DNA from: an uncultured Clostridia bacterium | Lineage (GTDB): Bacteria; Bacillota; Clostridia; Christensenellales; Borkfalkiaceae | DNA: 64,000 nt | Direction: 5' to 3' | Assembly (NCBI GenBank): GCA_947175325.1 | Contig: CAMWME010000007.1 | Coordinates: 6,657 to 70,656 of the forward strand | In this document: positions 1,790 through 16,259 of the stretch, in pieces | Layout of the letters: each line of letters opens with the position of its first letter | Numbering within the stretch: the stretch's first letter is position 1 | Notes under the pieces: generated by a model | The model's input: only the letters and a program-made list of their open reading frames with translations | Database searches by the model: none | What the model was told of the DNA's origin: nothing | Made by a program: the position numbers and the translations under genes

Positions 1790-2428
1790 ATGAAGAAAGG
1801 AAACACCGTTTTTTTTAATAATTCACCTTGTATAACTTCTTTTGCGGCCGTGTGCGGTTCAAAGGAAAAGGAAGGGGTTTTAGGCAAATTCGCCGATATA
1901 ACTTTGGACGACGATATGTATGAAGAAAGCACTTTTGAAAAGGCAGAGTGCAAAATGCTTTCAACCGCAATTTCGCTTGCAATACAAAAGGGCGGCTACT
2001 TGGAAAAGGATATCGACGTTCTCTTTTCGGGCGATTTGTTAAACCAAATTATTTCCGCAAGCTTTGCGGCAAGGGACTTTAACTTCCCTTTCCTCGGTCT
2101 GTATTCGGCTTGCTCCACGATGAGTGAAAGCTTGCTTTTGGGCGCAATGCTCGTAAACGCCGGTTACGTAAACCGCGTGGTTGCGGCAACGGGCAGTCAT
2201 TTTGCTTCGGCTGAAAGGCAGTACCGCTATCCCCTTGAGCTTGGCTGTACCCGCCCCCCGCAAGCTCAGTGGACGGTAACGGGTGCGGGCGGTTGCGTTA
2301 TTTCTTCGGAGAAGAAAGGCGTTAAAATCGTCAACGGAACTATGGGTAAGGTCTGCGACTTCGGTGTAACCGACGTGAACAATATGGGGGCGGCAATGGC
2401 GCCCGCCGTTGCTATAATAGGACCATAG
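1790..2428 (+). pseudogene. spoVAD: spoVAD 5' segment: codons 1-206 are authentic (to 2407), then 6 element-encoded codons (VAIIGP) and a stop
   Basis: The translation MKKGNTVFFNNSP...GDLLNQ...LYSACSTMSES...SHFASAERQYRYPLE...NNMGAAMAPA matches the SpoVAD N-terminal two-thirds. It ends prematurely at 212 aa, against about 338 aa in B. subtilis. Confidence 0.9.
2378..2428 (+). other. attL (spoVAD-derived left arm / element-derived right arm)
   Basis: Core CCCGCCG at 2402-2408. The inferred crossover dinucleotide is CC at 2402-2403. The element-side arm carries GTTG and ACCATA motifs, mirrored in the attR element-side arm. Confidence 0.65.
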
Positions 2429-2494
2429 GCAGCTAAAACACTTTAACGCAAAAAATAAAACGGGAGGACGGAATTTTACAGTTGCCGTATCAAA

Positions 2495-2530
2495 GCGCAC
2501 GCCGCATTGTGACGGCGTGCGCTCAAATTT
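2495..2530 (+). terminator. Rho-independent terminator just inside the element's left end
   Basis: GCGCACGCCG (2495-2504) pairs perfectly with CGGCGTGCGC (2513-2522) and is followed by TCAAATTTT. Confidence 0.7.
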
Positions 2531-2584
2531 TGTCGAAATTGCACTTAAATTGCGGCTAAATACAGACATTTATCTCTGTATTTC

Positions 2585-2613
2585 TTGACTTTATCGAAGA
2601 TAAGAGTTAAAAT
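2585..2613 (+). promoter_or_regulatory. SigA-type promoter for the LbH-glmM-glmS-capD-like operon
   Basis: TTGACT (2585-2590), 17-nt spacer, TAAAAT (2608-2613). Confidence 0.55.
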
Positions 2614-2693
2614 ATTTATCTACACACTGTGCATACTATAATAGATAAATTATTATCTATTAGCCAACCAAAATTTTTAAGCGGAGCAAGTAA

Positions 2694-3350
2694 TTGAAAA
2701 CAAGCGATTTGTTCGACCTTAATCACACGCAAGCGGCGGAGTACCTTAAAGCCTTTAACCATCCGTGGGAGGCTTTAAGCGGACTTAAAGATTTCATAAC
2801 CGGTTTAGGTAAAAGCCTCGACGGCAACGCTTACGAAGAAATTTCCGAAGGCGTTTGGGTTCACAAAAGCGCAAAAATTTCCCCCACGGCGTATCTGGGC
2901 GCGCCTTGCATCGTCGGTGAAAATACCGAAGTAAGACACTGCGCCTTTATTCGCGGCAGTGCGCTAATTGGTTGCGGTTGCGTGGTTGGCAATTCAACCG
3001 AGCTTAAAAACGTAATTCTGTTCGACGGGGTGCAAGTCCCGCACTATAATTACGTCGGCGACAGCATCTTGGGCTATAAAGCCCATATGGGTGCCGGCTC
3101 GATAACCTCAAACGTCAAATCCGACAAAACGCCCGTAATTATTAAAGGCGACGGAACGGAAATAAAAACCGGCTTAAAAAAGCTCGGCGCACTTTTGGGC
3201 GACTATACGGAAGTGGGCTGTAACAGCGTTTTAAACCCCGGCACCGTAACGGGCAGAAACGTTACCGTTTATCCCTTGTCTTGCGTTCGCGGAATAATTC
3301 CCGAAAACAACATTTTAAAGACGGGCGGGAAAGTGGTTAAGAAAATTTAG
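2694..3350 (+). CDS. Left-handed beta-helix (hexapeptide-repeat) acyltransferase, GlmU C-terminal-domain-like; putative sugar-1-phosphate N-acetyltransferase
   Basis: TTG start with GGAG 7 nt upstream. Repeated [LIV]G-x4 hexapeptide pattern (IVGENTEV, IGCGCVVG, ILGYKAHMGAGS, EVGCNSVLNPGT). It sits immediately upstream of glmM and glmS. Confidence 0.6.
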   Translation: MKTSDLFDLNHTQAAEYLKAFNHPWEALSGLKDFITGLGKSLDGNAYEEISEGVWVHKSAKISPTAYLGAPCIVGENTEVRHCAFIRGSALIGCGCVVGNSTELKNVILFDGVQVPHYNYVGDSILGYKAHMGAGSITSNVKSDKTPVIIKGDGTEIKTGLKKLGALLGDYTEVGCNSVLNPGTVTGRNVTVYPLSCVRGIIPENNILKTGGKVVKKI

Positions 3351-14044: not shown

Positions 14045-14118
14045 ATCAATTGCAATAAAAGCCGCCTTCCCGTAAAATAAAATTGCGTTAAAGTGCCGTC
14101 CTTTTAAAAGGCGTACAT

Positions 14119-15816
14119 ATGTCAAGAACAAGCAAATATCTCTCGGAGGCAGTTCAACCCGCACCCGTAGCGGCGTGGCGGGCGGGGCTGTATATAAGAC
14201 TTTCCCGAGAGGACGGCGACAAATTAGAGAGCGAAAGCGTTTCCTCGCAGAAAGCGCTGTTACAGCGTTTCGTTGACGACAACACTGAAATAACTCTAAC
14301 GGATTATTATATAGACGACGGTTACAGCGGGACGGACTTCGAACGCCCAGCTTTTCAGCGTATGATGGCGGACGCGGCAAGTAAAAAAATAAATTGCGTA
14401 ATCGTCAAAGACTTGTCTCGTTTCGGCAGAAACTACGTCGAGGCGGGCAAGTATTTGGAACTCGTTTTCCCGACCTTCAAGCTCCGCTTTATCGCGGTGA
14501 ACGACGGCATAGACAGCTTTGCCCAGCCGTCCACTATGAACACCGTGATAGTGCCCTTTAAAAACATAATCAACGACGAGTACTGCCGCGACATTTCAAT
14601 GAAGGTTAGAAGCGCCCTTGATATCCGCCGCAAGCAAGGCAAATTCATCGGTTCCTTCGCCGCCTACGGCTACGAAAAAGACGAAGCCGACCACAACAAA
14701 CTCGTTATCGACGATGAGGCGGCCGCAACGGTTCGCTTTATTTACGAAAAATTTCTGTCGGGTTACAGCATAATAGGCATAGCTCGGCTATTAAACGAGC
14801 GCGGCGTACCCAACCCGTCCGCCTATAAAGCCGAAAAAGGACTTAACTGCCGCCGCAGTTCAACTTGCAAAAACGGCGGTGCGTGGACGGATTCCACCGT
14901 AAGACGGATACTCACGAGCGAGGTATATATAGGCAACCTCGTGCAGAAGAAAAACGAGGTCATAAGCTATAAAATCCACTCGGCAAAAGCAGTCGAAAAG
15001 TCCAACCGCATAACGGTAAAAGGCACCCACAAACCCATAATTTTACAGCAAGATTTTGACAAAGTGCAATCTCTCTTAAAACGCGATACGCGCACCTCGC
15101 CCAAAGAGAGCGGCAAGCTGTCAACGTTTGCGGGCTTTATAAAGTGTGCCGACTGCGGCAGAGCCATGCAAAAGCGCACCGTCAAACAGCCCAACAAAAC
15201 ATACGAGTATTATATCTGTTCAACCTACCGCAAAATGCACAGCACCCTTTGCACCAAGCACGCTATCCGTGCGGAAGTCCTTGAAGAAGCAGTTCTCACA
15301 ACGCTAAACAAATATATTCAGCTTGCCGTAGACTTCGATAGACTTCTCGAAAAAATCAACCGCATGCAAAAGGGCGGGGCGCGGTCTAAAAGGCTCACCG
15401 CCGAACTTTCTTCCAACCAAAAAGAGCTTGAAAAGTCGCAAAAGATTTTACTTGATTTGTACCCCGATTTCAAAAACGGCTTAATCAGCCGCGAGCAATA
15501 CTTCGCCTTAAAGGAAAGGTATGAAAACTCAATCAAGCGCACCGAGCGTGAAATTGCCCGCATAAAGGAAGAAATGCGTAGCTTCGCAAACGGAGTGGAC
15601 GGCAGCAACCCCTTCGTTGCAACCTTCAAAAAGTACGGCGGACTAACTAAGCTTTCGCGCGATATTTTAGTCGAGCTCGTTGAAAATATCTATATCCACG
15701 AGGGCGGCGGTGTGGAAATCCATTTGAAGTGCAAGGACGCTTTTCTTGCCGCCTCCGAATATATCGAACAACACCAAACGGTGTCGAACGCCGAAAACTC
15801 AACCGGTATTGCATAA
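14119..15816 (+). CDS. Large serine recombinase (SpoIVCA/CisA / phage-integrase class)
   Basis: N-terminal resolvase domain (GLYIRLSREDGD with catalytic Ser, VIVKDLSRFGRN), a recombinase domain, a Cys-pair zinc ribbon (CADCG...C), and a C-terminal coiled-coil. Length 565 aa. Confidence 0.9.
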   Translation: MSRTSKYLSEAVQPAPVAAWRAGLYIRLSREDGDKLESESVSSQKALLQRFVDDNTEITLTDYYIDDGYSGTDFERPAFQRMMADAASKKINCVIVKDLSRFGRNYVEAGKYLELVFPTFKLRFIAVNDGIDSFAQPSTMNTVIVPFKNIINDEYCRDISMKVRSALDIRRKQGKFIGSFAAYGYEKDEADHNKLVIDDEAAATVRFIYEKFLSGYSIIGIARLLNERGVPNPSAYKAEKGLNCRRSSTCKNGGAWTDSTVRRILTSEVYIGNLVQKKNEVISYKIHSAKAVEKSNRITVKGTHKPIILQQDFDKVQSLLKRDTRTSPKESGKLSTFAGFIKCADCGRAMQKRTVKQPNKTYEYYICSTYRKMHSTLCTKHAIRAEVLEEAVLTTLNKYIQLAVDFDRLLEKINRMQKGGARSKRLTAELSSNQKELEKSQKILLDLYPDFKNGLISREQYFALKERYENSIKRTEREIARIKEEMRSFANGVDGSNPFVATFKKYGGLTKLSRDILVELVENIYIHEGGGVEIHLKCKDAFLAASEYIEQHQTVSNAENSTGIA

Positions 15817-15842
15817 AAGCGGGTTTAAACCCGCTTTTTTTA
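15817..15842 (+). terminator. Rho-independent terminator after the recombinase, just inside attR
   Basis: GCGGGTTT (15819-15826) pairs with AAACCCGC (15827-15834), followed by a T7 run. Confidence 0.75.
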
Positions 15843-15850
15843 TAAAAAAC

Positions 15851-15899
15851 TTATGGTGTTTTATTGACAACCGCCCCCGCCGCGGCAGACACCATAATT
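15851..15899 (+). other. attR (element-derived left arm / spoVAD-derived right arm)
   Basis: Core CCCGCCG at 15876-15882. The inferred crossover dinucleotide is CC at 15876-15877. See the att-site finding for arm symmetry. Confidence 0.65.
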
Positions 15900-16259
15900 C
15901 AGCATTTAAAGGACACCGAAACCGACCCGACCGACTACGATATGATTTTAACGGGCGACTTGGGTGCACTCGGCAGCCGCATCGTCAAAGACTTGTGCTG
16001 GGAAAAGGGTTACGATATATCTTCAAGGCACGTCGACTGCGGCGAAATAGTCTATAAGGTTATCGAAAAGGAATTCCAAGGCGGAAGCGGCGCGGGCTGT
16101 TCGGCAACTGTGTTAAATTCCTATATCCTCACCAAAATGAAAGCGGGACTGTATAAGCGCGTACTGTTCGCGGCAACGGGCGCCCTTTTGTCAACGGTAT
16201 CTTCGGGCCAAGGCGAGAGTATCCCAGCCATATGCCACGCAGTCCAGTTAGAGGTGTAA
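15864..16259 (+). pseudogene. spoVAD: spoVAD 3' segment (authentic codons from about 15876/15882 to the stop at 16257-16259)
   Basis: AADTIIQHLKDTETDPTDYDMILTGDLG...GGSGAGCSA...ATGALLS...ESIPAICHAV matches the SpoVAD C-terminal third. There is no RBS or plausible promoter in front, and the TTG at 15864 is only the ORF-track start. Confidence 0.9.

Follow-up and report, generated by a model that had tools for sequence, protein, structure and literature searches.

An intervening element with its own serine recombinase in the spore gene spoVAD of uncultured Clostridia

The split spoVAD gene, its recombinase and its attachment sites

The analyzed stretch of DNA, a 64-kb window from contig CAMWME010000007.1 of an uncultured Clostridia bacterium (GCA_947175325.1), carries a spoVA operon in which spoVAD is divided in two by an element bearing a large serine recombinase (LSR) gene at one edge. 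All features given below lie on the + strand unless stated otherwise. On the left of the element are a short-chain dehydrogenase (SDR) gene, the first of the operon (396..1199; Pfam adh_short), whose synteny with spoVAC is kept in relatives, and spoVAC itself (1275..1724; Pfam SpoVAC_SpoVAEB, E 9e-40). To its right are spoVAE of the SpoVAEb type (16261..16650; Pfam SpoVAC_SpoVAEB), separated from the operon promoter by the element, and downstream in the same operon-like array yunB (16682..17353; Pfam Spore_YunB). The spoVAD 5′ half (1790..2428) comprises 206 genuine codons followed by six element-derived codons (VAIIGP) and a stop, and matched positions 3-206 of the 329 positions of Pfam SpoVAD (E 2e-82). 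The 3′ half (15883..16259; codons 207-331) lies in an open reading frame (ORF; 15864-16259) that carries SpoVAD residues ~204-331 and matched Pfam SpoVAD positions 201-329 (E 4e-50). This mechanically called ORF begins at a TTG (15864) within the P arm of the right attachment site and has no ribosome-binding site.

An initial annotation of the window had proposed that an LSR-bounded intervening element splits spoVAD and that its precise deletion restores both the gene and the spoVAC-AD-AE operon. Its coordinates and numbers for the split were all verified, and the structural reading was supported and further strengthened by the anatomy of the attachment (att) sites, the empty sites of sister species and purifying selection on both gene halves. 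The heptamer CCCGCCG is present at both junctions (2402-2408 and 15876-15882) in identical codon phase, and core-to-core joining in silico removes 13,474 bp to give ATG GCG CCC GCC GCG GCA GAC within a 331-codon spoVAD. The fused protein aligned over its full length to the solved structures 3LMA and 3LM6 (E 1e-90) with neither gap nor duplication at the junction (nmgaAMAPAAADTIiQHLkD in the fused protein and dMGsAMAPAAADTIkQHLeD in the solved structures). The locus therefore shows an insertion within a sporulation coding sequence, a short core at both ends, and excision that restores the ORF. Independently assembled genomes from at least five related species, and several distant hosts as well, are split at the identical codon, so the split is due neither to chance nor to misassembly. 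The suggestion of the initial annotation that spoVAD is not a described target agreed with a literature search, in which no paper found described a split spoVAD and whose reach did not extend to the intervening-element survey of Abe et al. (2013).

The LSR gene (14119..15816) encodes a 565-aa TnpX-like protein with Resolvase, Recombinase and Zn_ribbon_recom domains (PF00239, PF07508, PF13408) and, as initially annotated, ends 60 bp before the right core at the element edge. The nucleophilic serine of the Resolvase domain, Ser29 (YIRLSREDGD), was invariant in 119 homologues. TnpX and SprA were the nearest solved relatives, A118 and TP901-1 being others, and the match to NCBIfam recomb_XisF (100 bits) was far under the model cut-off of 375. 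The ratio of nonsynonymous to synonymous substitution rates (dN/dS) of the LSR gene was 0.08-0.13 at a synonymous divergence (dS) >1. A sigma-70-like promoter (14050..14078; TTGCAA-17-TAAAAT) precedes the gene and is kept in five species, and L008 has TTGCGC-17-TATAAT (L-labels denote the other loci and genomes compared with the window), and direct reading of the sequence gave a hairpin and T-run terminator on its 3′ side (15819..15841). A phage or plasmid origin of the LSR was rejected, the best match among 50,697 phage and 72,556 plasmid records having 42% identity.

Directly 5′ of the LSR gene is a DUF6870 gene (13835..14044; 69 aa; Pfam DUF6870, E 2.5e-13), which from its position is a candidate recombination directionality factor. 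A homologue occupies the same place in L001, L003, L007, L008, and L097 and, with a weak match, in L011, and most spoVAD-targeting elements have a small DUF6870-like ORF ahead of the LSR. A homology search with the protein returned 19 close relatives only, and DUF6870 was mentioned in no paper found in the literature search. Seven nucleotides upstream of the gene is a weakly supported sigmaF/G-class promoter-like site (13800..13827; GTATA-N15-GGCAAAAA). A relaxed sigmaF-type pattern had six matches in 128 kb, among them this site and the spoVA operon promoter, and the upstream motif also precedes the homologous ORF in L007, L001, and L011, the last having unrelated cargo.

Both junctions displayed the anatomy of LSR attachment sites. 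In attL (2383..2428) a B arm TATGGGG starts 19 nt left of the central CC (2402-2403) and a P′ arm ACCATA, conserved in L001 and L008, ends 24 nt to its right; in attR (15851..15896) a P arm TATGGTG starts 24 nt left of the central CC (15876-15877) and a B′ arm CACCATA ends 19 nt to its right. Swapping the arms reconstructed a 52-bp attP, TTATGGTGTTTTATTGACAACCGCC[CC]CGCCGTTGCTATAATAGGACCATAG, that is an imperfect palindrome about CC, and a matching CC-centered 40-bp attB lying within the codons N-M-G-A-A-M-A-P-A-A-A-D-T-I. The motif TATGG(T/G)G is present in all four half-sites, its start lying 19 nt from the center in the B half-sites and 24 nt from it in the P half-sites. This 5-bp outward shift is the hallmark that separates attP from attB half-sites of LSRs in the structural model of the A118 integrase. 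The sites accordingly combine a palindromic attP of ~50 bp, an attB of ~40 bp and a P motif ~5 bp further out. In the L008-type species attL and attR have just CCCG in common, narrowing the crossover to the same CC, and the P arm TATGGTGTTTTATTGACA-N6-CCCG was conserved in all spoVAD-targeting elements sampled (LSRs of 62-94% identity). On this architecture the junctions are read as genuine LSR attachment sites rather than as a common heptamer. The predicted recombinant junctions are GGGGGCGGCAATGGCGCCCGCCGCGGCAGACACCATAATTC (attB) and TATGGTGTTTTATTGACAACCGCCCCCGCCGTTGCTATAATAGGACCATAGG (attP) for the window type and GGCAATGGCGCCCGCCGCGGCGGACACCATAATGC (attB) and TATGGTGTTTTATTGACATCTTCCCCCGAAAATGCTATAATAGCACCATAG (attP) for the L008 type.

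Age, relatives and cargo of the element

Comparative analysis identified LSR homologues of 94, 86, 84, and 68% identity at the same site, flanked by spoVAD halves with the break at the same codon, in uncultured Christensenellales-like Clostridia chiefly from mouse gut catalogues. When 185,579 species genomes were scanned for the fused SpoVAD, full-length matches only and no split genome were returned; the scan provided the host taxonomy and the empty sites. Sister species contain the array SDR-smallORF-spoVAC-spoVAD-spoVAE-yunB-pheT-pheS without the element. In neighbor-joining trees of the flanking proteins the split genomes formed one clade nested among intact-site species, and this monophyly points to a single ancient insertion. 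Between the window and L001, dS was 1.10-1.19 for cargo genes and 0.65-1.43 for flanking host genes; these similar values indicate that the element diverged together with its host and is no recent arrival. By these sequence comparisons the element has been within spoVAD since before the clade diversified and is fixed in it.

Both gene halves were under strong constraint. Among the split genomes dN/dS was 0.03-0.06 for the spoVAD 5′ half and 0.02-0.04 for the 3′ half, matching the values of intact orthologues across dS from 0.4 to >2, and no frameshift or stop codon was found in the spoVAD halves of any split species. A gene long dead would not look so after such a span of time.

More distant members of the LSR family (71, 67, and 62% identity) were identified directly 5′ of a spoVAD 3′ half, the break being at the same residue, in hosts whose SpoVAD identity falls to 49%. 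Two variants of the arrangement were found among relatives. In the L008-type species (L008-L010; L008:1306-16560; GCA_948623835.1) the block attR-3′ half-spoVAE-yunB is in inverted orientation 4.7 kb beyond the LSR, with five extra genes, including one for a sigma-70 region-4 protein, between the LSR and the inverted block. Since attR is intact and inverted, recombination of attL with attR would flip ~14.5 kb and rebuild the operon without loss of DNA. The end points of the inversion contained no inverted repeats or extra att arms that could explain it. The N-half ORF of this type was seen in >1,200 contigs, marking a very common species. In “Candidatus Scatosoma” (L054:9201-10990 and L059:9214-10993) the spoVAD 5′ half runs into an attL-like junction and, after ~180 bp, a complete second spoVAD in which the att region is rewritten (GAAMSPSCSSSLLEH), with a 1545-aa SF1 helicase gene and genes of unknown function downstream. 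The dN/dS of the interrupted half was relaxed (0.18) compared to 0.026 for the intact copy, and the element seems to bring a replacement spoVAD immune to its own integrase. Separately, in an intact-site relative (L093:1446-3200) an unrelated 584-aa LSR (27% identity) is encoded ~1.3 kb upstream of the SDR-spoVA operon with one Zip gene between them.

The cargo of the window element is largely devoted to carbohydrate metabolism. Just inside the left end are a terminator-like hairpin (2494..2523) and a sigma-70-like promoter (2585..2613; TTGACT-17-TAAAAT, 10/12 matches) ahead of the cargo operon. The cargo includes genes for a hexapeptide acetyltransferase resembling the GlmU C-terminal domain (2694..3350; Pfam Hexapep, LbH; C-terminal part of NCBIfam Arch_glmU), the phosphoglucosamine mutase glmM (3381..4769; TIGR01455 equivalog at 532 bits, cut-off 447), the glutamine-fructose-6-phosphate transaminase glmS (4780..6612; TIGR01135 equivalog at 757 bits, cut-off 418), and a CapD-like membrane UDP-GlcNAc 4,6-dehydratase (6647..8476; Pfam Polysacc_synt_2, E 3e-118). 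These are followed by a gene on the − strand for a membrane protein of the Wzy_C O-antigen ligase/polymerase family (8531..10018; Pfam Wzy_C) and by a heptose-nucleotide (GDP-heptose) module (10212..13169) of an HddA-like kinase, an HddC/GmhB fusion and GmhA. Its occurrence varies: the window and L003-L006 have it, and L001, L002, L007, and L008 lack it. A gene for a 189-aa membrane protein (13193..13762) forms a 37% guanine-cytosine (GC) patch confined to the element of the window genome and looks like a recent addition. Apart from this gene and the Wzy gene the GC content of the element is host-like; a foreign base composition was therefore rejected, and the host-like GC fits a long residence in the genome.

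A prophage identity was likewise rejected, as phage structural, replication and lysis genes are absent among the cargo, which consists of genes for carbohydrate metabolism and two small unknown genes. No relaxase or oriT was found in the window element, such as would mark an integrative mobilizable element, and a Mob_Pre relaxase gene was located in the related spoVAD-targeting element L011. Other cargo sets of the family were glycosyltransferases with EpsG and the Mob_Pre relaxase; a GT2 glycosyltransferase with a flippase and UDP-galactopyranose mutase; and glgC, glgD, and glgA. Carbohydrate or envelope-glycan genes were observed in every spoVAD-targeting LSR element sampled (L011, L095, L097, and the window). 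In two element-free relatives (L094:1139-1912 and L085:4044-5967) homologues of the cargo hexapeptide transferase (62% identity) and glmM (80%) lie directly after spoVAE, and the cargo of the element may derive from former neighbors of the spoVA operon.

Developmental compartment and rearrangement

The operon SDR-smallORF-spoVAC-spoVAD-spoVAE(-yunB) is preceded by a sigmaG-type promoter (362..390; GTATA-N17-CAAATTA) that ends 6 nt upstream of the first SDR codon. On the two strands of the window together, this operon start was the sole perfect match to the B. subtilis sigmaG consensus GHATR-N17-CAHWHTA, and the motif TG[ATC]ATA-N17-CA[AT]N[AT]TA was kept in 12 species. Both forespore-type promoter-like sites of the locus (362-390 and 13800-13827) end 5-7 nt before the annotated ATG, a spacing that suggests leaderless transcripts or mis-set start codons.

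In C. difficile, spoVAD expression depends on sigmaG (PMC3738446), and dipicolinate enters the forespore through its inner membrane by way of the SpoVA complex (PMC5629000). Mother-cell genes are the targets of all the known elements (skin, vfbin, vrin, SPbeta, gin, and yin), and excision is restricted to the terminal mother cell (PMC6957869, PMC5025042), which explains their persistence in the spore line (PMC6957869, PMC5025042, PMC5595907, PMC10747680); the phrase “almost all” with which reviews describe this placement of intervening elements allows for an exception (PMC6957869). The analogy to skin in sigK drawn by the initial annotation thus held for the layout and failed for the compartment, since the spoVAD operon has a conserved sigmaG-type promoter and skin-class targets are mother-cell genes. 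With such a promoter the mother-cell-only logic of skin is unsuited to this element.

The explanation that best accounts for these data, and which is held to be somewhat more probably right than wrong, is that an old non-phage element would be excised or inverted by its LSR in the forespore and that the change would be reversed after germination. The LSR would recombine attL with attR at the central CC, probably partnered by the DUF6870 protein as directionality factor, so that the element would leave as a circle and the 331-codon spoVAD and the continuity of spoVAC-AD-AE(-yunB) would be restored. The rearrangement would take place in the forespore, that is, in the germline, as inferred from the sigmaG-type promoter and the action of SpoVA in the forespore inner membrane. 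Since these lineages have kept the element throughout, the change must later be reversed. Once the spore has germinated, the LSR without its partner, expressed from its sigmaA-type promoter, would reinsert the circle by recombining attP with attB; where the sites are inverted, as in the sister species, a second flip would undo an inversion that destroys no DNA. The glmS and glmM genes of the element would penalize failed reintegration, though only if they are the sole copies. The full scheme, a reversible programmed germline rearrangement in which sigmaF/G-driven DUF6870 and a constitutive LSR would excise or invert ~14.5 kb, the LSR alone would restore the original state and glmS/glmM would enforce it, is offered tentatively and as possible rather than probable.

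Several observations weigh against a forespore rearrangement of this kind. The exact fused SpoVAD of four split haplotypes was absent from 15 billion proteins, no intact SpoVAD >93% identical to that of any split species was present among representatives, and the attP junction pattern had no match in viral contigs; it also had none in Joint Genome Institute (JGI) metagenome contigs, a result of little weight since the control attR matched there once. Assemblies report the majority state and under-sample spore DNA, so absent rearranged forms neither support nor exclude a spore-restricted event. The promoter calls rely on B. subtilis consensus sequences and are hence indirect. The motif upstream of DUF6870 has a mismatch at a conserved T, no forespore-type motif was found before the homologue in L003, L008, and L097, and the AlphaFold model of DUF6870 had a pLDDT of 58, too poor for comparison with known directionality factors. 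The search that found no second spoVAD was confined to the 64-kb window. To our knowledge, excision and reintegration in a forespore have no precedent. Finally, the array includes yunB, which in B. subtilis is expressed in the mother cell under sigmaE.

That last point would favor a classical skin-like excision in the mother cell only, with the spore keeping the split gene, and the missing rearranged forms would also suit an event in a dying cell. The layout, with an edge recombinase by the 3′ half and a small upstream ORF, is that of skin, gin, and yin (PMC5025042, PMC5595907). Such an excision is nevertheless judged unlikely given the conserved sigmaG-type operon promoter and the sigmaG dependence of C. 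difficile spoVAD (PMC3738446), and because SpoVA acts in the forespore inner membrane (PMC5629000), which a gene repaired in the mother cell would leave without the complex; nor did the region upstream of DUF6870 contain a match to the sigmaE or sigmaK consensus. A switch thrown during vegetative growth, stochastic or conditional and resembling active lysogeny, in which a subpopulation would set dipicolinate-loaded sporulation without developmental sigma control, is equally improbable. Its circle would have no replication gene and would bear glmS and glmM, so that it would be lost on growth, the excised or inverted form was absent in >1,200 contigs, and excision by LSRs normally requires a regulated directionality factor (PMC5025042, PMC5595907). 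These points outweigh the vegetative-type LSR promoter, the resemblance of the inverted L008-type sites to a phase-variation inverton and the mixed integrated and excised populations of C. botulinum yin (PMC10747680).

Two further alternatives dispense with a rearrangement altogether. A dead insertion, with spoVAD permanently off and the loss tolerated or backed by another copy while the LSR serves only the mobility of the element, would be compatible with the viability of C. difficile spoVAC mutant spores lacking dipicolinic acid. Compensation by a second copy does occur in the same-family elements of “Ca. Scatosoma” that bring an intact spoVAD, and the search for such a copy in split genomes was limited to the window. 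In the compensated “Ca. Scatosoma” case, however, the interrupted half had a dN/dS of 0.18, whereas the halves of the split genomes remained at 0.02-0.06 without frameshifts or stops, like intact orthologues, the att sites and LSR were conserved over an equal time span and the window held no second spoVAD; a dead insertion is accordingly considered quite improbable. Very improbable is a split protein, in which fragments of 206 and 125 residues would be made separately and assemble with the DNA unchanged. Purifying selection on both fragments would be expected of it, and the break falls between the two halves of a thiolase-like fold (3LMA). The 3′ half, though, has no ribosome-binding site or conserved start, gene callers choosing either the P-arm TTG or an internal ATG, and lies directly after the LSR terminator without a promoter; spoVAE would likewise be severed from its forespore promoter, and the conservation of the att sites and LSR would be left unexplained. 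All four alternatives rank below excision or inversion in the forespore followed by reversal, the case for which is built as a whole on sequence analysis.

Comparison with known systems and further features of the window

The element resembles skin in sigK (B. subtilis SpoIVCA/Skr; C. difficile CD1231/CD1234) in being LSR-bounded, with the recombinase at the edge by the 3′ half and precise excision. The C. difficile skin has a constitutive (sigmaA) LSR, CD1231, and a ~70-aa sigmaE-controlled directionality factor that sets timing and cell type (PMC5025042), and the LSR here likewise has a sigmaA-like promoter and a small upstream candidate factor. Unlike skin, which is prophage-like with a mother-cell target, the spoVAD element carries glmM, glmS, and glycan cargo in a forespore-type target, and among solved proteins its LSR is closest to TnpX and SprA. 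The gin element in gerE of B. cereus (GirC/GirX) is similarly non-prophage and pairs an LSR with a very small directionality factor (PMC5595907). It interrupts a mother-cell gene and varies between strains, whereas the spoVAD element is clade-fixed; its factor GirX (42 aa) is assigned to no known protein family. SPbeta in spsM (SprA/SprB) and C. botulinum yin in yabG are also units of LSR and directionality factor that rebuild a sporulation gene (PMC4191935, PMC5499854, PMC10747680), and SprA is the closest full-length solved relative of the LSR, although a distant one; both are prophages with mother-cell targets.

Beyond sporulation, the fdxN element of Anabaena heterocysts (XisF LSR, XisH/XisI) offers a developmentally programmed LSR excision that restores a gene, in a terminally differentiated cell so that the germline is never rearranged. 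In active lysogeny, as of SpyCIM1 in mutL of S. pyogenes and phi10403S in comK of Listeria, the element leaves and returns and the host gene is on temporarily. These elements are phages or phage-like and unlinked to sporulation, and their return corresponds to a reintegration that is predicted for the spoVAD element. A synthetic rewritable recombinase addressable data module is flipped one way by integrase plus excisionase and back by integrase alone. The inverted attL and attR of the L008 type would allow such flipping, the synthetic memory being engineered and the L008-type flipping a prediction from its sites, and we know of no natural inversion switch based on LSR att sites in development. 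The concept of active lysogeny is cited in earlier work (PMC10747680).

The spoVAD element is a new target and a new version of the sporulation intervening-element theme, marked by fixation in a clade, housekeeping cargo, a forespore operon and inversion-type and replacement-type relatives. A long-fixed element in a forespore gene breaks the logic of excision in a dying mother cell: either these bacteria rearrange and restore germline DNA during spore development, or the rules of the SpoVA compartment differ here. If the reversible reading is true, this would be the first intervening element working in the spore rather than the mother cell and a natural counterpart of synthetic integrase/excisionase memory switches. 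The reading is testable, as the att junctions are predicted to the base and the hosts are abundant in mouse gut metagenomes, with ERZ28595385, SRR27311112, ERR3357621, and ERZ27288263 among the runs that contain them. The conserved 40-bp target of the LSR family is of interest for genome engineering. Because automated annotation labels the split spoVAD halves “hypothetical protein,” the sporulation capacity of the clade is likely under-scored.

Several smaller features were identified at the locus and in its relatives. An Rfam scan of the window gave no glmS ribozyme match at the gathering threshold, and its one match was a bacterial large signal recognition particle RNA (37064-37328, − strand). 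Between the SDR gene and spoVAC, a 32-codon ORF (MRKEFDLSRRDERESLIK...; 1196..1294) overlaps the SDR stop and the spoVAC start, shows codon-wise conservation in eight species and is annotated as a gene in L001, L009, L010, and L093; it probably encodes a small protein that belongs to the spoVA operon. In L062, L068, and L074 (“Ca. Scatosoma” and related metagenome-assembled genomes) the spoVA genes are separated by insertions of 1-4 kb, located between spoVAC and spoVAD or between spoVAD and spoVAE.

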